Below the pieces are notes generated by a model. The model saw only the letters and a list, made by a program, of their open reading frames with translations, was not told where the DNA came from and ran no database searches. Below are positions 484-38,460 of a stretch of DNA of 47,889 nt, piece by piece. This stretch comes from Thermoplasmatota archaeon. Its GTDB lineage: Archaea > Thermoplasmatota > SW-10-69-26 > JACQPN01 > JAJPHT01. The position numbers and the translations under genes were made by a program. The stretch is from contig DATMKA010000193.1 of NCBI GenBank assembly GCA_035553595.1, positions 1 through 47,889 of the forward strand. Direction: 5' to 3'. Every line of letters starts with the position of its first letter. Position 1 is the first letter of the stretch.

Positions 484-1290
484 GTGCCCCGCCTTGCCGT
501 GAAGGTCGCGTATGACGGCACCCGCTTCCACGGGTCCCAGCGGCAGCCCGGCCTCCGCACCGTGGAGGGGGACCTGCTCCACGCGCTCACCCGCATCGGG
601 GCCCTCGAGAGCGCCGAGTCGGCGCGCTTTCTCGCCGCCTCCCGCACGGATGCGGGCGTGAGCGCGGCGGGGAACGTGTTCGCCTTCAACACCGGGATCC
701 CCCGGGAGCGCCTCCTGCAGGCCCTGAACCCCCACCTGCGCGACCTCTGGGCGCTCGCCGTGGCGGAGGTCCCCGAGGACTTCCATCCCCGCAAGTCGCA
801 CCGCCGCAAGTACCGGTACCATCTGCGGCGCGGCGGCTTCGATGAGGCACGCTTCCGTGAAGCGCTCGCGCTCTTCCCCGGAACCCACGACTTCACGGGC
901 TTCGCGCGCATCGAGGCGGGGCAGGACCCCGTGCGCCTCCTGGAATCGGTGACCGTGCACGAGCGCGGGCCCTACCTCGACGTGGAGCTCACGGCGCCGA
1001 GCTTCCTCTGGAACCAGGTGCGGCGCATCGTGGGCGCAGGCCTGAGCGTGGCTCGCGGCGGGGCCGCGGTGGAGGACGTGCGGGACGTGCTCGCGCGGCG
1101 CCGCACCCTCGACCTCGGCCTCGCGCCGCCGGAGCCCCTCGTGCTCCTCGACGTCGCCTACGCTTTCCCTCTTGAGCCCGACACCGGGTATGCGGCCCGC
1201 CTGCTGGGGCCAGCGGAGGAGGAGCTCACCCTCCGCCTAGCGCTCCTCCGCGACTTCAAGGACCCCGCTGGGCCGAGGGAACCGGAATGA
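484..1290 (+). CDS. truA: tRNA pseudouridine synthase A (TruA/Pus1-type)
   Basis: 268 aa. N-terminal VKVAYDGTRFHGSQRQ and the catalytic-Asp motif SRTDAGVSAAGNV are typical of TruA. GTG start as in the ORF track. Confidence 0.85.
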   Translation: MPRLAVKVAYDGTRFHGSQRQPGLRTVEGDLLHALTRIGALESAESARFLAASRTDAGVSAAGNVFAFNTGIPRERLLQALNPHLRDLWALAVAEVPEDFHPRKSHRRKYRYHLRRGGFDEARFREALALFPGTHDFTGFARIEAGQDPVRLLESVTVHERGPYLDVELTAPSFLWNQVRRIVGAGLSVARGGAAVEDVRDVLARRRTLDLGLAPPEPLVLLDVAYAFPLEPDTGYAARLLGPAEEELTLRLALLRDFKDPAGPREPE

Positions 1291-1787
1291 AGGTCGGAAT
1301 CCTCAGCGACACCCACGACAACCTCCCGCTCGTCGAGGCTGCCGCCCGATTCTTCCGCGACGAGGGCATCGAGCGCGTCCTCCACCTCGGGGACGTCACG
1401 AAGCCACGGTCGCTCGAGCCGCTCAAGGGCTTCCGGCTCACGACCGTGCAGGGGAACAACGACGGCGCGCTGCCGGAGCTTCCCGTCTCGTGGGCCGGGG
1501 AGGTGGGCGGCGTCCCCGTCGCCGCCACTCATGGTCACCTGTCAGACTTCCTGCAGGAGCTCGTGGCGTCCCGCCGGTACGCCTTCGTGTTCCGCGGCCA
1601 CAGCCACAAGGCGGGCGTGACCCGGGAGGGGGAGACCACCGTGGTCAATCCCGGGGCGCTCCACCGCGCCGCCGTGAAATCGGTATGCGTCCTCGACACC
1701 GCCACACGAGGCCTTGCCTTCTACGCGGTGGAGGCCCACCGGGTGGCGCCTTGGACGCCTCCCGCGGCTGCACCGAAACGCCGATAA
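1287..1787 (+). CDS. MJ0936/YfcE-family metallophosphoesterase
   Basis: Metallophosphoesterase motif series: ILSDTHDN, HLGDV, GNNDG, ATHGH, FRGHSH. 166 aa. The ATG overlaps the truA stop (ATGA at 1287-1290). Confidence 0.8.
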   Translation: MKVGILSDTHDNLPLVEAAARFFRDEGIERVLHLGDVTKPRSLEPLKGFRLTTVQGNNDGALPELPVSWAGEVGGVPVAATHGHLSDFLQELVASRRYAFVFRGHSHKAGVTREGETTVVNPGALHRAAVKSVCVLDTATRGLAFYAVEAHRVAPWTPPAAAPKRR

Positions 1788-1810
1788 CGCCGGCCACGGT
1801 TGCCCGGGGT

Positions 1811-2281
1811 ATGCAGCCGGCCTCCGCGGCCTTCGCCACGGTTCTCGTCGCCGCCCTCTCCTCCTGGTTGGGCGCCATGGTGTTCTGGTCCTTTGTGGCA
1901 ACGCCCCGCCTCTTCGGGCGCCTCGGGCGCGAGCGCGCGGGGGAAGCCACCCGAGTGGTTTTCCCCGGTTACTACGTGCTCGGGCTCGCGCTCAGCGCCG
2001 TGGCCCTTGGCGCGCTCGCCGCTTGGACCCTCGTGGAGGGCGCGTGGCGCCTCCCCCACCGGATCCTCTTTGGTCTCCTCGCGCCCCTCCTGTTTCTCGC
2101 GCTCTACGCGCGCCTCGTCCTCGTCCCCGACATGGAGCGCCACCGCGCAGGCCGCGCGGCCGGGGACGAGAAGGCCGCGAAGGCTTGGGGCCGCGCCCAC
2201 GGCATCAGCGTCCTTCTGAACCTCCTCAGCATGGTGCTGGCGCTTGGCGGCCTCGCCACCGTGGCTTGGGCCCTTGTCTGA
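1811..2281 (+). CDS. small multi-pass membrane protein, tentatively DUF4149/TMEM205-like
   Basis: Internal ATG at 1811 of ORF 1490..2281 gives MQPASAAFATVLVAALSSWLGAMVFWSF..., with four hydrophobic spans and an FPGYY motif. The upstream part of the ORF is R/G/P-rich junk overlapping the previous gene. Confidence 0.5.
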   Translation: MQPASAAFATVLVAALSSWLGAMVFWSFVATPRLFGRLGRERAGEATRVVFPGYYVLGLALSAVALGALAAWTLVEGAWRLPHRILFGLLAPLLFLALYARLVLVPDMERHRAGRAAGDEKAAKAWGRAHGISVLLNLLSMVLALGGLATVAWALV

Positions 2282-2732: not shown

Positions 2733-3449
2733 ATGCTATCGATCATGCGCGGTCGCTGGGCCTTCCTCCTCTTTCTGGCCATTCTCGTCTCCGGATGCGT
2801 CTCCACGCCTGCGGCCGAGGAGGAGCGCCCCAGCGAGGGAGGCCCCTCCTGCCTCTCCCCCGGAATCTGCCCCGCCATCACCACGGCGCCCACCGCGGAC
2901 ACGAGCTGGCGCAACGTGCCGCTCGACCTTGTCGCCGTGGGCCGCATCACCCTGAACAGCACGGAAAACCCCTTCCGCTTCACGAGCGCGGTGACGACGA
3001 TCCACCCGCAGGACTACGAGGTGGACGAAACCAACCGGACGCTCCGCCTCGCGAAGGGCATCGACATCCCCGAGGAGCGGGCCCGCGCCCTTGAAATCAT
3101 CACGGCGGGAGACGAGGACAGCCGGCGGCTCTACCTCCTACCAGCCAGAGCAAACCTGAGGGCCGGACCGACGCCGTCGGACCTCTCTTGGTTCGGGGAA
3201 GCGCCCTACGAGGTCCTGCTCTCACCCGAACTGCTGCGGTTCGAAACGCGGATCGAGAAGGGGTGCGTCATGGAAATCCTTGAGGGGCACCAGGAGTGGA
3301 GCCCGAAGGGTCCCTTCGAGGGGATGACCGATTTCGGGGCGGGTCCCGGCGCGCCGCAAACGGTGGCCTTCCACGGCGAGCCCGGATCCCTCTGTCCCGA
3401 GGTGGCGCTCCGGCTCGAAGCCCTCGGGGCCTTTAATCGGTCGAAGTGA
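2733..3449 (+). CDS. hypothetical secreted lipoprotein
   Basis: Internal ATG at 2733 of ORF 2511..3449 gives MLSIMRGRWAFLLFLAILVSGC, a signal peptide plus lipobox (LVSGC). The rest has no recognisable family. Confidence 0.55.
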   Translation: MLSIMRGRWAFLLFLAILVSGCVSTPAAEEERPSEGGPSCLSPGICPAITTAPTADTSWRNVPLDLVAVGRITLNSTENPFRFTSAVTTIHPQDYEVDETNRTLRLAKGIDIPEERARALEIITAGDEDSRRLYLLPARANLRAGPTPSDLSWFGEAPYEVLLSPELLRFETRIEKGCVMEILEGHQEWSPKGPFEGMTDFGAGPGAPQTVAFHGEPGSLCPEVALRLEALGAFNRSK

Positions 3450-5493
3450 GGCCCGCGTCCGCATCGCCCCGTAGGGCCACCGCCTTCTCCGCCGCCGCGC
3501 GCTTCGCGGCATCCTCCGCGAGGAGCTTCGCGAGGGCGGCGCGGTTGAACACGTCGGACTCGTCCGCGAGCACCAGGTTCTGGTCCGACTCCTTGCGGAG
3601 CAGGATCTGGATCATGCGCTCATCGATGGTGTTCGGGGTCACGAAGAACTCCACGAACACGGGCCGGTCCTGACCGATGCGGTGGACGCGGTCCATGGCC
3701 TGCATGTGCGTCGCGGGCGTCCACCCGAAGTGGAGGAACAGCACGTGGCGACCGCCCGTGAAGTTGAGGCCGATGCCGCCCGCCTCCATCTGGGAAAGGA
3801 GGACGCGGGGACCACCGTCGCGGCCAAACGTCTTCGAGAGCGCCTGCCGCTCCTTGGGGGGCGTCGCTCCCTCGAGGACGGCGGCAGCTTCACCGAGATC
3901 CTTCTTGAGCGCGTGGAGCGGCTCCAGGTAGTGGCTGTACACCACCACCGCTTCCTCGGCCTCCAAGAGCTCGCGGACGCGCTCGAGGACGGCGGGCACG
4001 CGTGCCTTCGCGAGGTGCTGGCGGAGGGCGCCGATGGCGGCGAACACGGCCACGTCGCTGGAGGACTCGCGCATGATGTCGGCGGCGCGGGCTTCGAGGC
4101 CGCGGTACACGCGCTCCTCCTCGGGCGGCAGGTCGTGCCGCGTGATGCTGATGGTGCGCGGAGGAAGCTCCGCGAGCACCTCGTCCTTGCGGCGGCGAAG
4201 GAGCACGTCGCGGGCTGCCTGCTGGAGGAGCGCCGCCGTCGCGGTGCGCACCTGCGCGTACTTGTTGAAGAGGGAGACGTCGAGGATCCAGGCCTCCTTG
4301 AAGGCCTCGCGGCTTCCCCACCGCTCGGGCTGCACCTGGCGGAGCAGCTCGTAGTAGTCGCCGATGTCGTTCACGAGGGGCGTACCCGTGAGGAGGAGGC
4401 GGCGGCGCTGCGGGAAAGACTTCACGAGGCGCGCGCGGAGGGTCTCGGGGTTGCGGATGTAGTGGGCCTCGTCGAGGATGAGGACGGGGCGGCACGTGAC
4501 GTCGGGGTCGTCCGGGCGGAGGGTGCGGAGCGCGTCGTAGGTCGTGACCATGAACTGCGCCTCGCGGGGGCCCGTGCGCTTCTGCTGGTGGTACACGCGG
4601 GCGGGCTTCCCCGTGAAACGCTCCACCTCGGCGGCCCAGTTGTACAGCACGTTCGCGGGGCCCACCACGAGGGCCTTGTCGTTCGACAGGAGGACGGAGG
4701 AGATGGCCATGATGGTCTTGCCGAGCCCCATCTCGTCCGCGAGGATGCCGTTGAGGTCGCGCGAGAGGATGAAACGGACACCGTCGGCCTGGTAGTGGCG
4801 CAACCGGCCCGCGAAGCCGGGGATCTGTTCGGGCACCTTCACGGTGCGGACGTCCTTGGCCTGGGGCGCGTAGCGCTCGGCGGCGGCCTTCAGGGCCTTC
4901 ACGGCCTCGTGGGCCCGCCACACGTCTTCGGCGGCAACGCCCTGCAGCGCCTGGGAGAGCTCCCGCGCCTCGGCCGCCTCCTGCACCTTCTTCTCGCGCT
5001 CGCGCTCGGCGCGCCACTTGTCGAGCGCCCCGTCGATGGCCCGCAGGTCCGCCTCCGCCTCCGCCTTGAAGGTCGGATTCTCCCTGAGCCACGCGGCGAG
5101 GCGCACGCGGCTCCCGCGCAGAAGCTCCAGTCCCGTGAGGGGGTCGGCGTTCGCCTCCTTCAGGATCTTGTCCACGTCGAAGGGCCGCGCCGACTCGTAG
5201 GCCACGCGCACCTTCGTGGGCGCGCCGAGGGGCGCCTCGCCCTCCTCGGGGAGCAGCTCCGCCTTCAGCATCTGCGCGGACCGCGCGAGCTTCGGGTACG
5301 CGTCCTTGGGGACGTAGCGGTTCCACGATAGCGCCTTGGGGTTGCTATCGACCTGCAGCGGGGCGCCCATCATCTTCAGCATGTTCCAGATGCGGGACTC
5401 GTTGTCCACGTAGTCCTCGATGCGGAGGAAGATGCGATCAGCCTCGACCCGGTAGCGCAGGCGCACACCCCCCGGAGGGCGGACCTCCCGCAT
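3433..5493 (-). CDS. SNF2-family DNA-dependent ATPase/helicase
   Basis: Motifs LRHYQADGVRF, ILADEMGLGKT (I), LILDEAHYIRNP (II, DEAH), LLLTGTPLVND (III), GGIGLNFTGGRHVLF and MDRVHRIGQDRPVFV (VI). Start set at the internal Met (MREVRPPGG, CAT at 5491-5493). The longer ORF to 5901 overlaps the divergent peptidase gene. Confidence 0.85.
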   Translation of the reverse strand: MREVRPPGGVRLRYRVEADRIFLRIEDYVDNESRIWNMLKMMGAPLQVDSNPKALSWNRYVPKDAYPKLARSAQMLKAELLPEEGEAPLGAPTKVRVAYESARPFDVDKILKEANADPLTGLELLRGSRVRLAAWLRENPTFKAEAEADLRAIDGALDKWRAEREREKKVQEAAEARELSQALQGVAAEDVWRAHEAVKALKAAAERYAPQAKDVRTVKVPEQIPGFAGRLRHYQADGVRFILSRDLNGILADEMGLGKTIMAISSVLLSNDKALVVGPANVLYNWAAEVERFTGKPARVYHQQKRTGPREAQFMVTTYDALRTLRPDDPDVTCRPVLILDEAHYIRNPETLRARLVKSFPQRRRLLLTGTPLVNDIGDYYELLRQVQPERWGSREAFKEAWILDVSLFNKYAQVRTATAALLQQAARDVLLRRRKDEVLAELPPRTISITRHDLPPEEERVYRGLEARAADIMRESSSDVAVFAAIGALRQHLAKARVPAVLERVRELLEAEEAVVVYSHYLEPLHALKKDLGEAAAVLEGATPPKERQALSKTFGRDGGPRVLLSQMEAGGIGLNFTGGRHVLFLHFGWTPATHMQAMDRVHRIGQDRPVFVEFFVTPNTIDERMIQILLRKESDQNLVLADESDVFNRAALAKLLAEDAAKRAAAEKAVALRGDADAGLTSTD

Positions 5494-5563
5494 AAAACCG
5501 GGGGCGCGCTCCGCAAAAAGGGTTAAGCCGCCCCTGGATTTGTCCGTGGCGGGAGGCCCCACC

Positions 5564-7801
5564 ATGCTCGCCCGCTCGCGGTTCCTCGCGCTCGCGTTCA
5601 TCCTCGTCACGCCCGTCCTCGCGGGCTGCATCACCGCCGAAGTCACGCCGGAAGCGCCCGTGACGACAGGCCCCTCGACCGAGGCTTGGCTTGGGAACCT
5701 GAGCGCCGCCAAGGTGACGGGGATGGTGAGCACCGTCGTCCACATCACGTCCGCCGACGGCACCAGTCTCTCCCTCACGGTGCACCTCCCCGACCCGCTC
5801 CCCGCGAGCGGAAAGATCCCCACGCTTCTGCAGATCACGCCGTACCAGGCGGGCCGCGCGTACACTCCGGCGACCGGCACCGCGCCCCCGGTGGGCAGCA
5901 TGTGGCAGTCCGTCGTGTTCCGCGGCGCTGCCTACGTGGAGGCCGACGCGCGCGGCACCAACGGCTCCGATGGCTGCCTCGACTTCGGCGGGTCGAAGGA
6001 CCGCGAGGACGCGGCCGCCTTCGTGGCCTGGATCCGCGACCAGCCGTGGAGCAACGGCGTCGTCGTCACGGACGGCATCAGCCACCCCGGCATGGGCAGC
6101 CTCGTCGCGCACGTGGCGGTTCCCGACCTCACGGCGGCCCTCGCCCACGCCCCCGTCGTGAGCTACTACCGGGACGAGTGGTACCAGGGCGCCAAGTTCG
6201 AGGACCAGAACAACGGCCTCGGCTACCAGATCGTGGAATCCGAGGCGGCCCCCATGGTGACCCCTGAGAGCCTGAAGGCCCAGGCGGCACCCTGCACCGG
6301 CCAGACCTATCTCGAGTACAGCTCCGAGCCGGGGACCTTCGGCGAGAAGTGGGCAGACCGCGACCTCTCCCTCCACCTGGAGAACGCGAAGGCTCCCGTG
6401 CTCCTCACGCAGGGCTTCATCGACCAGAACGTCTTCCCCGACCACGTCCAGGCCTACTGGGACGCGCTTCCCGAGAACTTCCCCAAGTACGTCATCTGGG
6501 GCTGGTGGTACCACGGCTGGCCCGACATGACGGGCCACCAGGCGGAGCGCTTCCGCGACCTCCGCATGCGCTGGCTCGACGCCACCCTCTTCGGCGTGGA
6601 CAACAGCGTCCTCAACGACTCCCGCGTCCTTGTCGAGGACAGCACCGGCGTCTGGCACGAGGGCCGCGACTGGCCCCTCGAGCCCTCCGAGCGCGTCACC
6701 CTCTTCCCCTCCGCCGAAGGCAGTCTCGGCAGCGCCGCGCCCTCCAAGGGAAGCGTCGACTACCAGGACCGGCTCGGCGCCGCTCGCGGCGCCTGGACGG
6801 ACGCCCACGTGGCCTTCCGCAGCGAGCCCCTCACGGCCGACCGCCTGGTGAACGGCGCCCCCACCGTGACGCTCGTCGCGTCGAGCACCCACGACAACAC
6901 CAAGTGGGTCGTCTACCTCCTCGACGAGGCCCCCGACGGGTCCTGGGAACGCGTCACCCACGGCTACGCCGACAGCCACACCTGGGGCAAGCCCGACGAG
7001 TGGCTTCCCCTTGAGCCCGGCAAGCCCTACGCCTGGACCGTGAACCTGATGCCCACCGCCGTCGTCGTGGAGAAGGGCCACCGCCTCGTGCTCCTCGTGG
7101 CGAGCCAGGACTCCCGCTACCAGATGGACCCCGCGACGGGCGACTACGTTCCCTTCGCGAGCCCCCGGCATGACTTCTGCTGGGACGACCGCCGCGGCGG
7201 CTGCTACCGCCCCTCCGGCATCCTCCCCGCCGACAGCCGCGGCAAGGCCGTGAACACCGTCCACACCGGCCCCGAGGGGACGCGCCTCCACCTCGCCTGG
7301 GTGGATCCCGCGCTCACCAAGAAGGCCCCGGCGCAGACCGTGGGCGTCCCCATCGGGGGGACCGTGAACGACGAGCCGCGCTCCGGGTTCTGCCGCATGA
7401 TGATGGACGGCGCTTCTCGCCCCGGGGTTGTGGGCGTAAGCGGGTTACACCAGATGGGTGGCAGCTGCGCCTTCGAGAGCGTCGCCGTGGGCAACCTCAG
7501 CAGCTACCGTTCCGCGCTCGTGGAGGTCGCGTGGAAGGCGGACCCCTTCCTCACGGTGACGGCGCGCGGCCAATCCTTCGACTGCTTCGGCGAGTGCTCC
7601 CTCGGGGAAGCGCGGGGCGGCAGCGGACCCCTGCGGTTCGTTGTGGACGGAGCGGTGTATGCTGAGAACGCGGACGCGTCCCCGTACGTGCTGATCCTCG
7701 TGGACGGGGTCGCGCGGCAAGTCCCGGTCACGGTTGCGGTCACCTTCTTCCGGGAGGAGACGCCCCCGGACGGGTTCACGGCGCTCGCAACCGACGCCTG
7801 A
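5564..7801 (+). CDS. CocE/NonD-family (peptidase S15, X-Pro dipeptidyl-peptidase-like) hydrolase, lipoprotein
   Basis: ATG at 5564 gives MLARSRFLALAFILVTPVLAGC (lipobox). The nucleophile elbow GISHPG (GxSxxG) follows GTNGSDGCLDFGG..EDAAAFVAWI. An LLTQGFIDQNV region is typical of the family. About 150 aa of extra C-terminal domain. Confidence 0.75.
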   Translation: MLARSRFLALAFILVTPVLAGCITAEVTPEAPVTTGPSTEAWLGNLSAAKVTGMVSTVVHITSADGTSLSLTVHLPDPLPASGKIPTLLQITPYQAGRAYTPATGTAPPVGSMWQSVVFRGAAYVEADARGTNGSDGCLDFGGSKDREDAAAFVAWIRDQPWSNGVVVTDGISHPGMGSLVAHVAVPDLTAALAHAPVVSYYRDEWYQGAKFEDQNNGLGYQIVESEAAPMVTPESLKAQAAPCTGQTYLEYSSEPGTFGEKWADRDLSLHLENAKAPVLLTQGFIDQNVFPDHVQAYWDALPENFPKYVIWGWWYHGWPDMTGHQAERFRDLRMRWLDATLFGVDNSVLNDSRVLVEDSTGVWHEGRDWPLEPSERVTLFPSAEGSLGSAAPSKGSVDYQDRLGAARGAWTDAHVAFRSEPLTADRLVNGAPTVTLVASSTHDNTKWVVYLLDEAPDGSWERVTHGYADSHTWGKPDEWLPLEPGKPYAWTVNLMPTAVVVEKGHRLVLLVASQDSRYQMDPATGDYVPFASPRHDFCWDDRRGGCYRPSGILPADSRGKAVNTVHTGPEGTRLHLAWVDPALTKKAPAQTVGVPIGGTVNDEPRSGFCRMMMDGASRPGVVGVSGLHQMGGSCAFESVAVGNLSSYRSALVEVAWKADPFLTVTARGQSFDCFGECSLGEARGGSGPLRFVVDGAVYAENADASPYVLILVDGVARQVPVTVAVTFFREETPPDGFTALATDA

Positions 7802-7858
7802 CAAGGGTTGACAAAGGGTTCATGGTCCCCAGCGGGCCTCCCCGCCGGGAGGACCATC

Positions 7859-9331
7859 ATGCGTCTCGTCGGCGTCGTCGCCCTTCTTCTCGCGCTCCCC
7901 GCCCTTGCCGGGTGCCTGAGCCCCGCCGCGGTGGAACCGAACACCGTCCCCGCGCCCGTGGTGCCCACGGCCCCCCTCACAACCTACACCGCCTCCGGCA
8001 CGCTCCTGCCCGTGGCCCAGGGCTGGGAGAGCCTCGCGGTGCGCCTCGCCGTCACCGGCTTCAACACCGGCGAGCCCTCCCTCGGCGTCACGAGCGACGG
8101 CACCATCTTCGCAACCGGCGGCGGCGCGAGCATCATCCGCTCCCGCGACCACGGCAACACGTGGGAGCGCGTCGGCGACGCCCTCCGCGACCCCAAGGCG
8201 AGCCTCGACCCCTGGGTGTACGTGGACCCCGTCACGGACCGCGTGTTCAACGCCCCGCTCTACGTGGCCTGCACCTGGGCGGCGTGGTCGGATGACGGCG
8301 GCGACTCCTGGGACGCGAACCCCTTCACGGGTTGCGGCATCCCCGCCCACGACCACCAGAAGCTCACCGCGGGCCCGCCCGCAGAAGGCGTGAGCACGAG
8401 CGGGTACCCCAACGTCCTGTACTACTCCTACAACTCCTTCCGCGACGAGGGCACCTGGATCAGCGTCTCCTACGACGGCGGCCGCACCTACTCCGTTGGC
8501 GGAAGCGCCCACCCCTCCGACTGCCACGGCGGCATCGCGGGCCCCGTCGCCGTCGCCCCCGACGGCACCGCCTACTCCCCGAAGCCCGCCTGCGACGGCG
8601 TGAACATCGCCGTCTCCCGCGACTCCGGCGCGAGCTGGGAAGTCACCGGGAAGGTCAACAATGCGGGCATCGGCGAGGCCCTTGCCACCATGACGGACGC
8701 CGCCGTGGACTCGGCGGGCAACGCCTACGTCGTTTACCCCGGGAAGGACGCCCGCACCTACCTCACGCGCTCCCTCGATGGCGGCAAGACGTGGACGGAC
8801 GGCGTCCGCGTCTCGCCCCCCGATGTCACGAGCACCGCCTTCCCCGTCGTCATCGCGGGCGAAGCGGGCCGCGTCGCCGTGGGCTACCTCGGCACCACCG
8901 CCGACGCGAGCAAGTGGGACAGCCCCAACCCCCAGGATGCTGACGCGAAGGCCGTGTGGCACCTCTACCTCACGTTCACGGAGAACGCGACCGCCGAGGA
9001 CCCCGTGTTCACGACGCTCCGCGTGACCCCCGAGGACGACCCCGTGCAGGTGGGCTGCATCTGGCAGAGCGGCGGCAGCAACCCCTGCCGCAACCTCCTC
9101 GATTTCTTCGACATGGTGGAGCGCGATGGCCGCGTCTACCTCGTCTTCGCTGACGGGTGCGAGAAGTGCACGAGCGCCGACCAGAGCCGCGGCCGCGCCG
9201 TCGCCCTCGCCATCGTGGAGACGGGGCCCTCCCTCCGGACGGGGCTGCTCGCTCCGCTCGGCGCTGAGACGGAAGCGGTTACCGAAAAGAAGAATGCCCC
9301 CGCCACCCTGGCGGGGGCCGTCTGGAATTAG
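7859..9331 (+). CDS. BNR/Asp-box repeat (sialidase-fold-like) lipoprotein, paralog 1
   Basis: ATG at 7859 gives MRLVGVVALLLALPALAGC (lipobox). Five Asp-boxes (SxDxGxTW-like): SRDHGNTWE, SDDGGDSWD, SYDGGRTYS, SRDSGASWE, SLDGGKTWT. Confidence 0.75.
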   Translation: MRLVGVVALLLALPALAGCLSPAAVEPNTVPAPVVPTAPLTTYTASGTLLPVAQGWESLAVRLAVTGFNTGEPSLGVTSDGTIFATGGGASIIRSRDHGNTWERVGDALRDPKASLDPWVYVDPVTDRVFNAPLYVACTWAAWSDDGGDSWDANPFTGCGIPAHDHQKLTAGPPAEGVSTSGYPNVLYYSYNSFRDEGTWISVSYDGGRTYSVGGSAHPSDCHGGIAGPVAVAPDGTAYSPKPACDGVNIAVSRDSGASWEVTGKVNNAGIGEALATMTDAAVDSAGNAYVVYPGKDARTYLTRSLDGGKTWTDGVRVSPPDVTSTAFPVVIAGEAGRVAVGYLGTTADASKWDSPNPQDADAKAVWHLYLTFTENATAEDPVFTTLRVTPEDDPVQVGCIWQSGGSNPCRNLLDFFDMVERDGRVYLVFADGCEKCTSADQSRGRAVALAIVETGPSLRTGLLAPLGAETEAVTEKKNAPATLAGAVWN

Positions 9332-14850: not shown

Positions 14851-16368
14851 TCAAGGCCCAAAGCGCGGCAGGGGAATGGAGCGGTTCCCGCTTTCGGGCC
14901 CCTCCTCAGCGGCGGGCTGGGCGGAAGCCATCGTGAGGCGCCCCTTCGCGGCGTAGAGGCTCGGGCCCTCCTCCAGGATGGCGACGGCGGTGGCGCGGGC
15001 CCGGGAGTCGTCCAGGGTAGCCGCGGGGTTGTTGGCGCAGTCGAACTCGTCGTCGTCCACGCACCCGTCGGTGAAGGCCACCACGGCGCGGCCCTCGGGG
15101 CCCACGTGGAGGTCGATGAAATCGAGGTGGTTGCGGCCGGGGTCGCCGCCGCCGCCCTCCCACATGTACCCGATCTGGATGGGGTCCTCGTCGGGGGTCA
15201 CGCGCTGCGTCACGAAGGTGGGGTTCGCGCTCGCCGCATCGAGGCTGAAGGTCACGAAGAGGTGCCAACGCGTGTTGTCGGGAGCTTCGCCCGCGGTGGC
15301 CGTGGTCATGTTGGTGCCGTAGTAGGCAAAGGCGAGGCGGCCGTCGTCGCCACTCGTGACGACGGAGAAGCGCGCGCTCGTGACCTCGGGCGGGCTCACG
15401 AGGAAGGGGCCCTCGGCGGTGGCGAAGCCGTCGGTGGAGCGCGCCACGTACATGCGGTTGTCCTTCGCGGCGCGCCAGAAATAGTAGGCGGTACCGTCGG
15501 GCGTCACCGTGACGTCGGGGTCGATCTCGGCGTTGCCGAGGCCGCCGTCCTCGATGTAGCGGAGGGTCCAGGTGAGGCCGTTGTCGGTGCTCACTGCCAC
15601 CGCGGGCTTGCCGCAGTTGAGGCCGAGGGGCACGTACACAGTGCCGTCGGGGGCCGCGTGGGGCTGGCCGTTGATGCCGCCGCACTCCTGCGTCACGACG
15701 CGGTCCACGGGGTAGGTGAGGCCGCCGTCGTAGCTCATCGCGCAGTTCGTGGTCACGAGCTTGTTGTAGCAGTAGTACACCAGGTTCTTGTACACGGGGT
15801 TCGGCAGGGCAGGGAGGTCGGGCCCGTAGGCGCCGGTCGCAATCTTCTGGTGGTCCACGACGGGAAGGCCGCAGCTCATGGGCCGGTCGATCCAGGTCTC
15901 GCCGTCGTCGTCGCTGTAGACGGCGCTCGAGCAGGCGAGAACGGGGAACATGAAGGGCGCGAAGACGCGGTCCGTGTCGCGGTCCACCCACAGCATGGGG
16001 TCGGAGTTGCGACCGTAGTCGACGCCCTCGGCGACCTTGCCGAACTCGAACACCTTCTCCCAGGTGAGGCCGTTGTCCTTGCTGCGCATCACGAAATCGC
16101 CCGCGCTCACGAAGATGGCGCCGCTCGACGTGATGCCCACGTTGGGCTCCGCGCCGCGCGTCCCGAGGAGACGGTGGACCACGCGCGTCGTCCCGTTCAG
16201 GAACTCCGGCGGCAGCGGCACGGGGGCGCCCGCGGCATCGTAAGAGAGAAGCGGGACCTCCGGCAGGGAGGGCGTGGGGATGGAGGCAGAAGTGGCGGAC
16301 TCCTCGGCAGGTGTGAGACACCCCGCAAGAAGAAGGCCCGATAGGGCGAGGGCGACGACGGCGCGCAT
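14851..16368 (-). CDS. BNR/Asp-box repeat (sialidase-fold-like) lipoprotein, paralog 2
   Basis: Internal ATG (CAT 16366-16368) gives MRAVVALALSGLLLAGC (lipobox). Asp-boxes: SKDNGLTWE, SDDDGETWI, SYDGGLTYP, STDNGLTWT. Collinear with the 7859..9331 product (for example DPMLWVDRDTDRVF versus DPWVYVDPVTDRVF). Confidence 0.75.
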   Translation of the reverse strand: MRAVVALALSGLLLAGCLTPAEESATSASIPTPSLPEVPLLSYDAAGAPVPLPPEFLNGTTRVVHRLLGTRGAEPNVGITSSGAIFVSAGDFVMRSKDNGLTWEKVFEFGKVAEGVDYGRNSDPMLWVDRDTDRVFAPFMFPVLACSSAVYSDDDGETWIDRPMSCGLPVVDHQKIATGAYGPDLPALPNPVYKNLVYYCYNKLVTTNCAMSYDGGLTYPVDRVVTQECGGINGQPHAAPDGTVYVPLGLNCGKPAVAVSTDNGLTWTLRYIEDGGLGNAEIDPDVTVTPDGTAYYFWRAAKDNRMYVARSTDGFATAEGPFLVSPPEVTSARFSVVTSGDDGRLAFAYYGTNMTTATAGEAPDNTRWHLFVTFSLDAASANPTFVTQRVTPDEDPIQIGYMWEGGGGDPGRNHLDFIDLHVGPEGRAVVAFTDGCVDDDEFDCANNPAATLDDSRARATAVAILEEGPSLYAAKGRLTMASAQPAAEEGPESGNRSIPLPRFGP

Positions 16369-16457
16369 GCGAATCGCTGCCAGACCCCCTGGTCGGTTGA
16401 AAGCCTTTGTGGTGGCGAAGGCCGGCAACTCCACAGCGGGTCGGCAGAATCTATCCA

Positions 16458-17552
16458 CTATGGAAGAATTCCGTCCAAACGTGGAACGCCTGTTTCGTCA
16501 CGGCAACCCTCGGGCCGACCAAGCTTGAGCAACGTGTCGCATCCGCTCACCGCGATCATTCCATTAGCGTGACCAGTCCCAGAGATTGCCACTGGCGGGA
16601 CACATACAAGCGTTCTACACGTGGTTGCAGTCTTAGCATCTCCTGTACCGCTCACCGCAATATCGCCCCCCGACGCATTGCCGGTCGCGGACGCCGCCAA
16701 GGTGGGATCACACACCGTATTACAACCCTCGGAGAAGGCGTCGCCGGTAAGGCTTACTGCCCTGGATCCACGTGCCGTCCCAAACCCGCTCAGGGAAAGG
16801 ACCTGCCCCCATAGGGCATCCCCCGTACCGCTCACTGCGAGGGCGTCCCCTCGGGCCGTGCCGTTGCGGCTGATCCCCACATCCTGCCCCCAGGCGTCGC
16901 CGCCCCCACCGACGGCCACCAAGCCACACCAATACCCTTTCGAATAGTAATAGTGAGGGCAGCGGCTGGCGTTACCGTGGGTACTTACACTCGCCCAGTA
17001 CCCATCGGCCCGCTCAGTGTCATTGATTGCAAAGCACTCTCGGCCATTGCAAGTTCCCGCCCCAAAGGCAATCGGGCCCCTTGAGGCACCGAGGATGGAA
17101 AGCGAGGCATCATCCCCGCTGGCGTTGCCAGTGCCACTCACCGCGACGCAATCCACAATCCCCCTACACCAGTCGACGCCAGTCGCCCGAGCATCCCCCG
17201 ACCCTGAGATCGCGGTTTGGCCTTCACTGTTTCCGGTCCCGCTCACCGAGGCCGTCGTAAGGCAATGGTAAAGGTATAGGACAATGGAAGTCCTACACCC
17301 GTAGGCAGACTTCGCATCACCTGTTCCGCTTATTGCCAGAGCAACGCAGTGACGGCCGGGGAGAGACGGGGAGCAGAACGGTCGGGATGCTTCGGCATCT
17401 CCATACGCGCTGACTGCCAACCAATCACCCTTGGCATCACGGTCAACTGCGATGTCATAAGGGGATGCAGCAGCCCATCCCGAAATGAGACTAGGCAGTA
17501 CGCAGAGGACGAGAAAGACGGATCTCAAATCCAGCCACCCAGACCGACACAT
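16458..17552 (-). CDS. secreted Cys-rich repeat protein with about 13 copies of an [AVI]-S-G-T-G-[DN]-A-type motif; no known family
   Basis: 364-aa ORF with a signal-peptide-like N-terminus (LRSVFLVLCVLPSLISGWAAA). Eight canonical repeats (AISGTGDA, VSGTGNS, AISGSGDA, AVSGTGNA, AVGGGGDA, AVSGTGDA x2, AISGTGHA) plus about 5 degenerate ones. About 18 Cys. The true start may be the TTG at 17528, preceded by GGGTGG. Confidence 0.6.
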   Translation of the reverse strand: MCRSGWLDLRSVFLVLCVLPSLISGWAAASPYDIAVDRDAKGDWLAVSAYGDAEASRPFCSPSLPGRHCVALAISGTGDAKSAYGCRTSIVLYLYHCLTTASVSGTGNSEGQTAISGSGDARATGVDWCRGIVDCVAVSGTGNASGDDASLSILGASRGPIAFGAGTCNGRECFAINDTERADGYWASVSTHGNASRCPHYYYSKGYWCGLVAVGGGGDAWGQDVGISRNGTARGDALAVSGTGDALWGQVLSLSGFGTARGSRAVSLTGDAFSEGCNTVCDPTLAASATGNASGGDIAVSGTGDAKTATTCRTLVCVPPVAISGTGHANGMIAVSGCDTLLKLGRPEGCRDETGVPRLDGILP

Positions 17553-17561
17553 GTCAGAAAC

Positions 17562-17574
17562 GATATATATTTAG
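17562..17574 (-). promoter_or_regulatory. TATA-like box upstream of the repeat-protein gene
   Basis: The minus strand reads CTAAATATATATC, the only AT-rich block in this spacer. It lies only about 10-20 nt from the ATG at 17552 but about 40 nt from the alternative TTG at 17528. Confidence 0.3.
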
Positions 17575-17688
17575 TGGGGGTGGCCTCGCGGACCTGACCT
17601 TCCGTTGATCCCGGGAGCCCCTGCCCCTTTCGATCGAGGCAGGAGCTTAGGAAGACATTCGATTCTTCCTGCGGGCTTGGCAGTGAGC

Positions 17689-18588
17689 TTATCCGATCTG
17701 GGCGATCTGGTCCTGGATGGACTTGGCGGCGGCGCGCATCCAGTCGGCGTCCTCGCCCGTGAGGGGGTACTCGACAATCTTCTCGATGCCGCGCTTGCCG
17801 ATGACCGCGGGGACGCCGAGGGCGACGCCCTTCTGGCCGAACTCGCCGTCGAGGACGCACACGGTGGGCACGATCTGCTTGGGGCCCTGGCCGAGGGCGG
17901 CCTGCACCATCTGGCTGATGGCGATGCCGGGGGCGTAGTAGGTGGCGCCCTTCTTCTCGATGATGGAGGCGGCGCGGCCGCGGACGGTCTCCTTGGCGGC
18001 GTTCCAGTCCACCTTGGCGCCGCCGGTGTTGGCGATGCTCGCGGCGGGGAACATCTGCTCGCCGTGGTTGCCGAGGATCCAGGAGTCGTTCCAGATGGGG
18101 GCCTTCACGTTGTCGCGGAGCACGTCCCAGAGGCGCATGGAGTCGTGGAGGGCGCCCATGCCGTAGATCTGGCTGCGGGGGACGCCCGCGCTCTTCCAGG
18201 CGGCGTACACGAGGGGGTCCACGGGGTTCGTGACGATGTTGATCTGCGCCTTGGGGGAGGCGGCGAGGATCTTGCCCGTGATGTCCTTGATGATGCCGGC
18301 GTTCTTGAGGAGGAGGTCCTCGCGGGTCATGCCGGGCTTGCGGGCAAGACCTGCGGAGACGACGACGACGTCGGCGCCGGAGAGGAGGCCGTAGTCGGAG
18401 CCGCCGACCACGCGGGTCTCGAGGCCGAGGCCCGCGGCGGCGGTGTTGAGGTCCATGGCCTCGCCGACGGCGAGGTTCTCCTGGAGGTCAACGATCGCGA
18501 TCTCCTTGAGACCGTGAACGCGGTGGAGAGTCGAGTAGACAGCATTCGCGCCGATCTTGCCAGCGCCGACGAAGCCGACCTTGGTCAT
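17689..18588 (-). CDS. mdh: malate dehydrogenase (LDH-like MDH)
   Basis: MTKVGFVGAGKIGANA Rossmann motif, ARKPGMTREDLL (the Arg specifying oxaloacetate), IVTNPVD, and a GNHG active-site His region. Start at the internal ATG (CAT 18586-18588). Confidence 0.9.
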   Translation of the reverse strand: MTKVGFVGAGKIGANAVYSTLHRVHGLKEIAIVDLQENLAVGEAMDLNTAAAGLGLETRVVGGSDYGLLSGADVVVVSAGLARKPGMTREDLLLKNAGIIKDITGKILAASPKAQINIVTNPVDPLVYAAWKSAGVPRSQIYGMGALHDSMRLWDVLRDNVKAPIWNDSWILGNHGEQMFPAASIANTGGAKVDWNAAKETVRGRAASIIEKKGATYYAPGIAISQMVQAALGQGPKQIVPTVCVLDGEFGQKGVALGVPAVIGKRGIEKIVEYPLTGEDADWMRAAAKSIQDQIAQIG

Positions 18589-32968: not shown

Positions 32969-35900
32969 TCACTCCTCTCGGCCGCCGCGGGAGCGCTTCA
33001 CGACAACCACGGCCGCCACGACGACCACGAGCACGAAGCCGGCGATGAAGTACCAGTAGTCGCGCAGGAAGTCGTTGACTCCCTTGTTGGTCGCGTCCTG
33101 GACCGTCTCGGCCTTCGTGTCGAAGTAGTGCGTGTATTCCGCCTTCTTGGGGTCGGTGCGGATACCGTAGAGCGTGCTGCTGCGGGAGTCGGGGGCCTGG
33201 GCCACCTCGGTCACCACATCGTCGGCGAAGCTCGACTCGTCGTCGCCTGCGTTGAAGTACAGGACGGGAACGAGGTCGTCCTCGACATCGTAGATGAGGA
33301 ACTCGCGGCCGTCCGTGCGGACGATGCTGACCTCGCGGGCCTTGCGGATGGCGAACTCGGGGTCCTCACCCGTGAAGAAGGCCGAGTCGACCTCCTCCTC
33401 GCCACCCTCAGGACCCGTGCGGTCGAAGAGGTAGACGGGGCGGCCGTTGCCGGAGTCGAACACGAACTGGACCGCGCTCAGGATACCGAGGGAGGGGTTC
33501 CAGTAGGTGTCGCCCTCGCCCTCGCCGGAGGAGCGGCGGTTCGTGTCGAGGATGAAGGTGGTCTTCCCGTCACCCTCGGCGAAGAACGTCTCCACCACGC
33601 GGCTGCGCGTCGAGGCGGGGTTCCACTCGCGGAACACCTCGAAGCCGTTCGCGGGGTTGCGGTCGAGGTCGATGGCGAGCTCCTCGATGTCGTCGCCGTC
33701 CACGTCGTCGTGCTTGAAGTTGTACACGGCCACGTCGAAGTTGCCGCGCTGGCTCACGTTGAGCACGCGCTGCGTGCGGAGGGCGTCGAGGCTCCAGCCG
33801 TACACGGTGACCGTGCGGTCGCCAGGCTGGACCCACTCGCCACCGCGTTCGGTGGTGGGCGGCACGAAGCTGATGGTGACTTCCTTCTCCTCACCGGGCT
33901 TGAGGGTGAGGGGACGGTTGTCGAGCTCCACGCGGCGCTCCCAGGTGCGGTTGTCCCGGTTGGGAAGCGCGGCGATGAAGGTCAGGTTGTCCCAACCGTT
34001 GCCTTCGTTCTTCACGCGGAACTTGATGCTGCCGGACCCGCCGGGCTCGATCCAGAGCTTGTCCTTCGGCATCTGGAGGCTGAAGGCGTACTCGTGGATT
34101 TCCGCCGTGACCGAGCGCTCGGCGCGGCCCACGGCCGTCTTCGCGGCGGTGTAGGCGATGAGGGTGGCCGTGACGGAGGCGGCGCGCTCGGCATCCGCGG
34201 GAGCGGACACGTTGAGGAACACCTTCTTCGCGGCACCGGGGCCCACCTTAACGAGGGTGATGCCCTGGCGGCCCTGCTCGTCCTCGAGGGTGGCGCGCCA
34301 GCCCGTGGGGAGGTTGGACTGGGGCACTTCGAGGGGGAACTCGCCTTCGAGGCTGCCCACGTTCTTCACGAAGATGGGGAAGCGCACGAAGCCGGCCCGG
34401 TCCACGCTCTTCACGGGCTCGAGGGTGTCGAGGCTCGGCACCGCGGACCCTTCGAGGGTCGTGGTGGTGAAGGTGAGCAGGTTCACGGGGCGGTTGTTGC
34501 CGGTGATGCTGAGGCCGGACTGGCCCTTCGCGAAGGCCCGCACCGTGAAGGGGTAGCTGGACCCGCTCGTGGCACCGAGGGCCTGCACGACGAACTGCAC
34601 CTCGGCCTCCTCCTGGGGTTTGAGGGAGGTGAGCGTGGAGGGGACCACGCTGAGGGTGAAGTTCTTGTTGATGGTGGGGTCGGACGCGTTGGGGAACACG
34701 TCGAAGCTCACCGTCAGGCGCTCGTTGTACAGGTTCTTCACCTTGAAGGTGAAGTTCTGGGGCTCCGAGCGGCCGTTCTGGATGGCGATGGGCTTCACGA
34801 GCACGGAGGCATCCATGGGGAGGCGGCTCGCGATGTCGCGGTCGAGGATGAGGTGGCGGATGCTCGCCGAGGCGAGGTCCTTCTTCTCATCCGTCTGGCA
34901 CTTGTCCTGGCCGGTGAAGGCGCAGACGCGGTACCGGATGGAGCCGTCGCCCGTCTCCGTCTGGGGAATGTCCACGGTGGCCGTGACGACGCGGCGGTCG
35001 CCGGGGCCGATCGTGAGAATCGCCTGGGGAAGGGTGACGGACCAGGGGAGCGTCGCCGGGACCACGGGCTGGATGAGCACCGTGGCGGACTTCGCGCCCG
35101 TGTTCTCGATGGTGAGCGGGTAGCTCGAGGGCGTGCCCGCGCGCACCGTCACTTCCTTGGGCGCCGTGAAGGCCACGCCTTCGTTGCTGCGGACGTCCAC
35201 CTTGAGGTAGTAGTACTGGGGCTCGCCGAGCTTCTCAAGAGCCTTGACGACGAGGGTGGGCGCGATGCTGTCCACGTTCACCTTGGCGTTGGCGGGAGCC
35301 GTCACGCGGATGCGGATCTGGTGCTCCCAGTTGGTCACCATGGGCACGTAGGGCGTGTTGCGCGCCCCGCGGACCTGGAAGCTCGGAGGAATCAGGTTCA
35401 TGGCCGTCTTCCAGTCGAACTTCGCCGAGTCGGTGGTGTTCTGCGTCTCGTTACGCATCTCCACCTTCCAGCCCTCGGGGAACTGGCCGATCAGGGTGAG
35501 GTTCAGGCTGCGGTTGTTGAACTCCTGGCGGACGACATTATTGCTGGTGGTCCAGTTGTACCAACCGGTCACCCAGTTGTGGAGGTTGCTCACACGGTAG
35601 CTGAACTCGACAGACTGGCCGGGGAGGACGGTCTTCTGGTTGGTCTCGTCCGTCGCAATCTTGCGGGCCTCATCGTAGTTCGCGAGGGGGCGCAGGGGCT
35701 CAGCGTGGAACTCGAACGTGCGGACCTGAGGGTCGCTCTCCTTGTCGGATCCCTTCGCCTGATAGACCCCCTTGAGGGACACCTGTACCGCGTTCTTCAC
35801 GGTGGTGTTGCTCTTGTCGATGGCTTCCACCGCCATGGAGAGGGTGCGGCCGAGGAAGTACACGGAGTCCGTCTGGCGGACCTTCACGTACACCTCCGCG

Positions 35901-38374: not shown

Positions 38375-38460
38375 ACGGTCACCTCGAAGAGGTCGGGGTT
38401 GGGATGGCCGGGCCGCCGAAGCGGATCGACCAGCGACAGGGACAGAGGAGGAGGCGCGCG

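Follow-up and report, generated by a model that had tools for sequence, protein, structure and literature searches.

A gene of atypical codon usage in a Thermoplasmatota archaeon encodes a member of an undescribed family of predicted extracellular repeat modules

Introduction

Among described repeat proteins, the antifreeze β-helix of the Tenebrio molitor type is composed of 12-residue TCTxSxxCxxAx coils, and the calcium-binding RTX β-roll is built on the repeat GGxGxDxUx of 9 amino acids (aa), with two turns per 18-aa coil. Right-handed parallel β-helices (pectate lyase, NosD, CASH) have three strands and 22-25 residues per coil, and the YadA-like head with its Hep_Hag repeats is a left-handed β-roll of 14-residue repeats of the type 'NSVAIG..A.A'. 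N-glycosylation is typical of archaeal surface proteins, and the archaeosortase substrates (PGF-CTERM and relatives) carry a C-terminal motif, a transmembrane helix and a basic tail. Here we analyse a gene, hereafter the repeat gene, that encodes a predicted secreted protein with short 'AVSGTG[DN]A' repeats. It lies in a stretch of 47,889 nucleotides (nt) from a Thermoplasmatota archaeon (contig DATMKA010000193.1 of assembly GCA_035553595.1, forward strand; G+C 68.9%), and this whole stretch is what we call the window.

Uncultured Thermoplasmatota are widespread and some of their lineages are inferred to degrade extracellular protein (PMC9239135). We report that the product of the repeat gene, referred to below as the query, is best described from its predicted structure as an ordinary kind of object, a member of the class of secreted β-solenoid modules, belonging to a family that had not been described. 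We also report that its codon usage departs strongly from that of the surrounding genes.

Results

A family outside the curated databases

The open reading frame (ORF) as mechanically called spans 16458..17552 on the minus strand (364 aa from ATG 17552, with the stop codon at 16458-16460), and the same call is obtained on public contigs. Scans of the protein against Pfam and NCBIfam gave no match even at E<=1. A search of PDB sequences returned one chance match with the single protein (E=0.48) and none at E<=10 with a 45-sequence profile. A word-indexed search retrieved 14 weak homologues sharing the same motif (E = 1e-10 to 7e-4). The exhaustive profile search, which covered 1.84 billion cluster representatives, retrieved at least 403 of them at E<=1e-3, 196 at E<=1e-10 and 23 at E<=1e-30. 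With the 45-sequence profile we obtained 210 matches at E<=1e-5, nearly all of them singletons from raw metagenome assemblies.

The initial annotation of this locus, made from the sequence alone, had stated that the protein could not be assigned to any family. This holds for the curated databases, as no confident match to a known repeat family was found in Pfam, NCBIfam or the PDB, but it does not hold beyond them, since at least 403 uncharacterised representatives exist. The survey of homologues and of their taxonomic distribution that it had proposed did reveal a family, whose few named members are all proteins of Candidatus Thermoplasmatota metagenome-assembled genomes (MAGs), recorded as hypothetical or as 'CARDB domain-containing'. 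Among the GTDB species representatives, two peptide patterns hit only three loci, two in Thermoplasmatota MAGs and one in a MAG labelled Acidobacteria, so that the taxonomic spread is poorly sampled at isolate grade. Judged from these sequence matches, the query belongs to a sizeable, undescribed family of presumably extracellular archaeal repeat modules, found mainly in uncultured Thermoplasmatota.

The query matches a 9-sequence profile that includes the query itself at E=1e-74, and independent members match it by phmmer at E=1e-10 to 1e-7; the closest homologue is 34-46% identical in local alignment. No second member of the family is present in any frame of the window. A full-text literature search for the motif strings returned nothing, or unrelated S. 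aureus peptides, and a general literature search on Thermoplasmatota surface β-helix repeats returned nothing relevant.

In the alignments, family members share a common layout consisting of a signal peptide, an N-terminal cap (N-cap), a variable number of 'xAVSGTG[DN]AxGxx' units and a C-terminal cap (C-cap). The N-cap reads '(P)VxVxxxGDAxxxxxAVSxxGxA', and its counterpart in the query, SPYDIAVDRDAKGDWLAVSAYGDA, aligns in A1 and A3. A central '(S)VLGTCNGxxC...(D)GYW' motif is often present. The C-cap reads 'AVSGTGHAxGxxAVSGC(D/E)T...C...P..LP', and the query ends in AISGTGHANGMIAVSGCDTLLKLGRPEGCRDETGVPRLDGILP. All four marks of the family are found in the query: full-length profile similarity, a signal peptide followed by the N-cap, 12-13-aa units with Cys confined to loops, and the C-cap.

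Two further observations concern the family at large. The dipeptide LP stands at the free C-terminus of 61 of 193 members (16461-16466 in the query), the next commonest dipeptide occurring 5 times; it follows the last Cys loop at a variable distance, without a transmembrane helix, and may be a recognition or docking signal. In addition, the locus from the MAG labelled 'Acidobacteria bacterium' (L009, 5770-6660; groundwater) encodes a subtype of great regularity, each unit having its own Cys loop ('CIAVSGTGDASN...C'), which recurs in the Thermoplasmatota locus L011. The L009 copy is either a bacterial member or the product of a mis-binned contig.

Short units and two-Cys loops

The query is an acidic protein (25 Asp) containing 15% Gly, 13% Ala, 10% Ser and 18 Cys. 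Seven strict copies of [SG]G[TS]G[DNH][AS] are present. We built a position-specific scoring matrix (PSSM) of the unit from 406 strict seeds in the homologues and set its threshold at 0.1% of shuffled controls. Fourteen units of the query score above this threshold (motif Ser at residues 48, 75, 104, 116, 139, 190, 215, 228, 241, 255, 267, 288, 301 and 324), two others, at 152 and 177, are weaker, and the C-cap contributes a further unit. The repeat region (16545..17462, minus strand; residues 31-336) is made up of the N-cap and of about 16 units of 12-13 aa, among which seven two-Cys loops are inserted. Within it, a central segment (16863..17057, minus strand; residues 166-230) carries the family motif 'GTCNGxxC...(D)GYW' and degenerate units. 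The C-cap (16461..16589, minus strand; residues 322-364) runs AISGTGHANGMIAVSGCDTLLKLGRPEGC...ILP, with a Cys338-Cys350 loop and the terminal LP. The gene contains no tandem repeats at the DNA level, which indicates that the repeats are old and diverged and persist at the protein level only.

The 18 Cys of the query are located at residues 2, 17, 60, 69, 86, 97, 129, 135, 168, 173, 198, 209, 277, 281, 312, 317, 338 and 350. Past the signal peptide, the remaining 16 form eight sequence-adjacent pairs (60/69, 86/97, 129/135, 168/173, 198/209, 277/281, 312/317 and 338/350), and each of the eight falls within one long spacer or in the C-cap. The pairs are local, their members being 4-12 residues apart and confined to the long spacers between coils. 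The same rule is seen family-wide. A spacing of 12 or 13 aa between units was counted 770 times, and 96-97% of these short spacers are devoid of Cys; spacers of 16-23 and 27-33 aa hold exactly two Cys in 70-92% of cases. The number of Cys is even in 177 of 193 family proteins. Because of this pairing, the even Cys counts and the extracellular location, we propose that the loops are closed by disulfides, the Cys pairs probably closing inserted loops instead of stapling the coils to one another.

The earlier count of about 13 repeats is fair in view of these numbers, and the estimate of about 18 Cys was correct, as were the four pairs that it named. In contrast, the spacing that had been described as irregular (12-30 residues) is really a regular 12-13-aa period interrupted by two-Cys loops, and the term 'disulfide-stapled' is misleading for Cys pairs that are local and found in the long spacers only.

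Asp or a sequon at the turn of the motif

The D/N position of the motif is occupied by Asp in 890 of the loosely defined units of the family (68%) and by Asn in 416 (32%); when the count is restricted to strict SGTG[DN]A units, the proportions are 63% and 37%. Ser or Thr is found at +2 in 76% of cases after G-N-[AS] versus 35% after G-D-[AS] (odds ratio 6.1). Family-wide, N-x-S/T sequons number 689 versus 357±14 in shuffles, a 1.9-fold enrichment in a count that takes related repeats as independent. In the query, five of the nine Asn lie in sequons (N143, N177, N194, N230 and N292; about 16677-17126 of the window). On these statistics, the motif in its Asn form appears to be an N-glycosylation sequon under selection, and the alternation points to an exposed turn bearing either an acidic residue or an N-glycan.

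Predicted structure

AlphaFold2 (AF2) modelled the query with a predicted local distance difference test (pLDDT) score of 66 when 9 sequences were supplied, and of 75.5 with 45 sequences, the predicted template modelling score (pTM) being then 0.63. In the 45-sequence model, residues 31-165 and 231-350 are mostly at 80-94, and the central segment is of low confidence. DSSP assigned short strands only, in a succession of a 4-residue strand, a 4-residue turn, a 3-residue strand and a 2-residue link, that is two strands per 12-13-aa unit. In one dimension, this is the pattern expected of a narrow solenoid or β-roll with two sheets. The regular strand-turn-strand succession and the high scores of the canonical repeats are in line with the solenoid-like architecture that the initial annotation had anticipated. 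Foldseek searches of both AF2 models against the PDB, and of the better model against BFVD, yielded nothing significant (best E 0.28 in the PDB and 0.02 in BFVD); nearly all of the weak neighbours are β-helix proteins (tailspikes, pectate lyases, AlgE4).

Fusion partners and gene neighbourhoods

We examined the fusion partners of the repeat module among the 65 members of at least 420 aa. Peptidase_S8 domains are fused to it in 4 members and Trypsin or Trypsin_2 domains in 3, to which can be added P0002 and P0009, homologous by eye to the protease domain of P0018. NosD or Beta_helix domains occur in 4 members (P0035, P0051, P0052 and P0086), CARDB also in 4 (P0015, P0031, P0038 and P0047), fn3 in 2, and VWA, FG-GAP, PQQ and RCC1 in 1 member each. 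The repeat module sits at either end of its partner.

Secreted proteases also recur in the gene neighbourhoods. At locus L011, a gene for a 543-aa member (685-2316) is followed 430 nt downstream by a subtilase (S8) gene (2754-4562). At L006 (348-4582), an 802-aa gene with co-linear trypsin-type His/Asp/Ser motifs precedes two tandem paralogues, its similarity to P0018 being weak (E = 0.014-0.03). At L001 (8001-13216), a gene combining S8 and PKD domains lies two genes downstream of the member. Finally, the member of L004 follows a 2139-aa CLIPPER-domain surface protein. From these fusions and neighbourhoods we infer that the family provides a module for scaffolding or attachment outside the cell, whose link to secreted serine proteases is recurrent without being exclusive.

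Codon usage of the repeat gene

The G+C content of the repeat gene is 60.6% versus 68.9% for the window, the lowest value among all 1095-nt windows (z = -3.6). Its G+C content at third codon positions (GC3) is 0.611, compared with 0.919±0.022 for 15 other genes in the window (z = -14), and the shift away from these 15 genes affects all codon families. Thus, the codon fractions in the repeat gene and in its neighbours are, respectively, 0.60 and 0.10 for GAT, 0.10 and 0.69 for CGC, 0.27 and 0.69 for GGC, and 0.26 and 0.71 for CTC. Codon usage is a stronger signal than the dip in G+C. The intergenic spacers on both sides have G+C contents of 57% and 62%, and the adjoining genes have a normal GC3 (0.86-0.96). 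As low G+C is common to both spacers, the atypical segment extends over about 16369-17688, the repeat gene with its two spacers (16369..17688), between the malate dehydrogenase gene mdh and a BNR/sialidase-like gene.

An islet of lower G+C holding one gene of 364 aa had been reported from three 60-nt samples. The gene is present as described and the sample values are exact (55.0%, 51.7% and 68.3%), but they overstate a dip that brings the whole gene to 60.6%. The sliding-window and codon-usage computations that had been suggested as a check place the gene at the window minimum.

Elsewhere in the window, the first 100 codons (38324-38623) of an 1884-aa ORF encoding an Ig-like surface protein (32969-38623, minus strand) have a GC3 of 0.56, compared with about 0.92 in the rest; either the start of this ORF has been placed too far upstream or the segment is a second patch of atypical composition.

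The genes of other family members have a GC3 near that of their hosts (0.90 in L001, 0.95 in L004, 0.75 in L006, 0.84 in L009 and 0.86 in L011; range 0.73-0.95). In L020, L021 and L011 the family gene is 0.09-0.13 below its flanks, whereas the window copy is 0.31 below. At L020 we also noted a 230-aa ORF (1238-1930, minus strand) with a GC3 of 0.57 beside member P0007 (GC3 0.85), the third gene of the contig having a GC3 of 0.95; this ORF is another compositionally foreign gene adjoining a family member.

A variable interval downstream of mdh

The repeat gene is flanked upstream by mdh (17689-18588, minus strand), which shares 78-85% identity with its counterparts in several 'Candidatus Thermoplasmatota archaeon' MAGs, and downstream by the BNR/sialidase-like gene (14851-16368, minus strand), whose product has a lipoprotein-like N-terminus. 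The gene recurs with identical junctions in two public contigs, one from ENA (99.98% identity across 21 kb) and one from Logan, whose entire sequence is contained unchanged in the window. L017 is the closest relative that we found: its mdh is 80% identical at the DNA level, and mdh and the polyketide-cyclase gene keep their synteny with the window. The interval between them contains two small membrane-protein ORFs in L017, and not the repeat gene and the BNR gene. In L012, L014, L015 and L018, other genes lie downstream of mdh and no family member is found there. Since these relatives are only about 80% identical and are rearranged downstream of mdh, no clean empty site could be obtained.

The foreign codon usage, together with the absence of the gene from the mdh-polyketide cyclase interval of L017, argues for a lateral import, in agreement with the horizontal acquisition suggested in the initial annotation. 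Indeed, the gene sits in a variable slot downstream of mdh and looks recently imported with its own promoter. Of the usual features of an island or cassette, atypical composition and absence from the orthologous position are both found, and hallmarks of mobility are not. A diversity-generating retroelement or hypermutation was considered and dropped, as no reverse transcriptase lies nearby and the bias extends through the entire gene and into both spacers.

In this lineage, the DNA downstream of mdh is variable. The window holds two paralogues of the sialidase-like β-propeller family BNR_2, at 7808-9331 (plus strand) and at 14851-16368 (minus strand), and similar BNR genes lie near mdh in relatives (L014 7273-8637, L018 8755-10110). 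Separately, the SNF2-family helicase of L018 (11421-12900) carries an intein (Intein_splicing and LAGLIDADG); the 822-aa SNF2 helicase of the window (3433-5901) has no intein domains.

Start codon, promoter and signal peptide

A TATA-like box, TAAATATATAT, is located at 17563..17573 on the minus strand. It is one of only six A/T runs of at least 8 nt in the 48-kb window (at 12473, 17563, 19685, 31277, 43425 and 43436), all of which are intergenic and mostly 24-40 nt upstream of starts, as would fit archaeal promoters of the TATA type whose transcripts have a short leader or none. Archaeal transcription usually begins about 25 nt downstream of the TATA box. The centre of the box is 15 nt from ATG 17552 and 39 nt from the in-frame TTG 17528; for the other called genes of the contig, A/T boxes are found at -24 to -36 from the start codon. 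With a box only 15 nt from ATG 17552, the transcript would start inside the ORF.

Moreover, GGGTGG, a possible Shine-Dalgarno-like element (17535..17540, minus strand), ends 6 nt upstream of TTG 17528. In the product read from this TTG, MRSVFLVLCVLPSLISGWAAASPYDIAVDRDAKGDWLAVS, the count of residues up to the first 'LAVS' is exactly 40, as it is in P0010 and P0007. The TATA spacing, the position of GGGTGG and the co-linearity of the 40-residue N-terminus with those of P0010 and P0007 make TTG 17528 the likely start, as had been proposed, giving a coding sequence at 16458..17528 (minus strand) for a 356-aa protein that would begin MRSVFLVLCVLPSLISGWAAA.

The predicted signal peptide (17466..17528, minus strand; residues 9-29 in ATG numbering), also recognised earlier, consists of a hydrophobic stretch followed by small residues. 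AF2 models a helix at 9-24, the same type of segment opens all homologues, and cleavage probably occurs after GWA or AAA. A lipoprotein reading of the protein was dropped, 'LVLC' being a poor lipobox. Scans for bacterial-type promoters and terminators and an Rfam search at the locus gave nothing informative.

Discussion

We propose that the query is a standalone, laterally acquired, extracellular repeat scaffold or attachment module, a reading that, taken as a whole, we give an even chance of being right. After Sec-type export and removal of the signal peptide, the mature protein of about 330 residues would adopt a narrow fold resembling a β-solenoid, in which coils of 12-13 residues are stacked. 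Within a coil, the strand 'xAVS' would lead through the tight turn 'GTG[DN]' to the strand 'Axx', both strands being short, and a link of 2 residues would follow. Between coils, eight short loops, each bracketed by two Cys, would probably be closed by disulfides, and the ends of the stack would be capped by the conserved N-terminal motif and by the C-terminal Cys loop ending in LP. Since the turn position, presumably exposed, is taken by Asp or by the Asn of an N-x-S/T sequon, an acidic and N-glycosylated ridge would probably mark the surface. The domain fusions and gene neighbourhoods suggest that the module serves as a rigid extracellular scaffold or attachment element, through which exo-enzymes, serine proteases above all, may be displayed or kept at the cell surface or on a substrate. 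Standalone copies such as this one could supply the same surface structure without an enzyme. The window copy, with its own promoter, would result from a recent lateral transfer from a donor of lower G+C into the mdh-polyketide-cyclase-like gene slot. We consider the observations on structure and evolution to be solid; the function is what we infer from them.

Several points weigh against this proposal. No characterised homologue points to any function, and the window copy has no protease neighbour, its neighbours being mdh and the BNR-repeat lipoprotein-like gene. The solenoid geometry is read from the one-dimensional DSSP pattern, the AF2 model is poor over residues 166-230, the middle third of the protein, and the Foldseek matches are far from significance, with template modelling (TM) scores of 0.10-0.18. 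The sequon enrichment is lowered in weight by the relatedness of the repeats counted. As regards acquisition, no mobility hallmarks flank the gene, with no integrase among its neighbours and short direct or inverted repeats at chance level only; the nearest tRNA gene (tRNA-Asn) is 2.6 kb away, with housekeeping genes in between. Neither a donor nor a close orthologue was found (best local identity 34-46%), and the three public copies may come from the same or related samples. Finally, three of the seven other family genes also have a lower GC3 than their flanks, so that part of the bias could be a family trait.

This last point bears on whether the gene was imported at all. A native gene could owe its low GC3 to gene-specific mutation or selection, for instance through very low expression or a relaxed bias typical of the family, or the locus could be a chimera of metagenome assembly. 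The moderately lower GC3 of those three family contexts and the lack of mobile-element signatures would agree with this. However, the deficit of 31 GC3 points (z = -14) concerns all codon families and goes far beyond the 0.09-0.13 seen elsewhere, and low G+C extends to both intergenic spacers. The gene is also missing from the equivalent interval of the closest relative, L017, and the same junctions appear in two other public assemblies (99.98% over 21 kb and an exact substring, respectively). We thus consider a native or chimeric origin to be quite unlikely, and retain lateral acquisition.

As for the activity of the protein, an inhibitor, a pro-domain-like chaperone or a substrate-recognition module for secreted serine proteases could be imagined in place of a general scaffold, given the fusions to S8 and S1-type proteases and the protease genes that adjoin members in L011, L006 and L001. 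But fusions to non-protease domains (NosD β-helix, CARDB, VWA, FG-GAP, PQQ, fn3) are equally frequent, the module is found at either end of its partner, and no protease gene adjoins the window copy; such a dedicated partnership appears unlikely, if slightly less so than a native origin. The G-T-G-D turns might instead coordinate Ca2+ as in a β-roll analogous to RTX, folding being triggered by extracellular calcium. Indeed, a Gly-x-Gly-Asp turn once per coil resembles the RTX GGxGxD turn, and the protein is secreted and acidic (25 Asp). The period is nevertheless 12-13 aa, not 9 or 18, and Asn replaces Asp in 37% of strict units, the 76% of Ser or Thr at +2 pointing to an exposed side chain and not to a coordinating one. 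Furthermore, no HemolysinCabind or other Pfam match was obtained at E<=1, and AF2 folds the repeats confidently without ions, which is weak evidence. Calcium binding of this kind seems to us about as improbable as a native gene. Far less probable still is the ice-binding function to which the initial annotation had drawn an analogy, in which a flat repeat face would bind ice as in insect and bacterial ice-binding proteins. The 12-13-aa coils, small residues, Cys and one Thr per coil do recall the 12-residue Tenebrio antifreeze, and the AF2 pattern is solenoid-like. But the query lacks TxT or TxN arrays, its Cys are in inserted loops and not in every coil, and the conserved exposed position, Asp or a probable glycosylation site, is ill-suited to a flat ice-binding face. 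There is no Pfam match, ice-binding families included, and no structural match, and the groundwater, farmland or sand labels of some related contigs indicate no obviously cold habitat. We found nothing in favour of the analogy.

We come back to the scaffold or attachment module. At the sequence level, the family shows neat regularities: the two-Cys loop rule, the alternation of Asp and sequon, and the terminal LP. One could go further and imagine an undescribed fold and a cell-surface display system of Thermoplasmatota, in which a narrow solenoid would carry a ladder of Asp or N-glycans together with disulfide loops, its LP-ended C-cap would act as an attachment or co-assembly signal, and standalone copies would form the structure that incorporates protease-, β-helix- and CARDB-bearing versions. 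This extension is rather unlikely to hold in full, and we rank it only a little above a dedicated protease partner. In any case, the module is a candidate means by which Thermoplasmatota display or retain exo-enzymes and a candidate for a new Pfam-type family. It would add to the repertoire a short-coil β-solenoid interrupted in a rule-like manner by two-Cys loops and sequons, and could serve as a test case for the prediction and design of repeat proteins. For this genome, our analysis brings a corrected start codon and flags the acquisition of a single gene by lateral transfer.

Compared with described systems, the query is like the Tenebrio molitor antifreeze in its coils of about 12 aa, small side chains, richness in Cys, secretion and one conserved Thr per coil. 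The antifreeze has two Cys per coil bridging its core, whereas in the query family the canonical coils are devoid of Cys and the pairs bracket loops; the query also lacks the TxT ice-binding ladder and gave no sequence or Foldseek match to this protein. With 96-97% of the 12-13-aa units free of Cys and no TxT array, it does not belong with the insect-type antifreeze proteins. With the RTX β-roll it shares a Gly-rich turn with a conserved Asp, alternating short strands, a predicted two-sheet stack and secretion. It differs by its period of 12-13 aa, by one conserved turn per coil and by the interchangeability of Asp and Asn-sequon, and has no Pfam match to HemolysinCabind (PF00353) at E<=1. Right-handed parallel β-helix proteins are also extracellular, often bind carbohydrates and are almost the only class that Foldseek weakly retrieved; the query is set apart from them by the lack of a Pfam match and by its best PDB hit (E=0.28, TM 0.10-0.18), and the repeat region never matches Beta_helix or NosD, even within the proteins fused to NosD.

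The YadA head and Hep_Hag repeats of trimeric autotransporter adhesins resemble the query by their short coils and by motifs of small hydrophobic residues, Ser, Ala and Gly ('AVSG...A' versus 'SVAIG..A'), YadA being an adhesin-type stalk. Unlike them, the query has no Hep_Hag or YadA_head match in Pfam and no autotransporter anchor, belongs to an archaeal host and has Cys loops. Its C-terminus (...CRDETGVPRLDGILP) has no hydrophobic helix and no NCBIfam match, which separates it from the archaeosortase substrates. The CARDB, PKD and PPC modules of archaeal exo-enzymes are Ig-like β-sandwiches with curated Pfam models, whereas the module described here would be a repeat stack, with no model in Pfam or NCBIfam; like them, it is promiscuous and is found fused to subtilases and to other secreted proteins.

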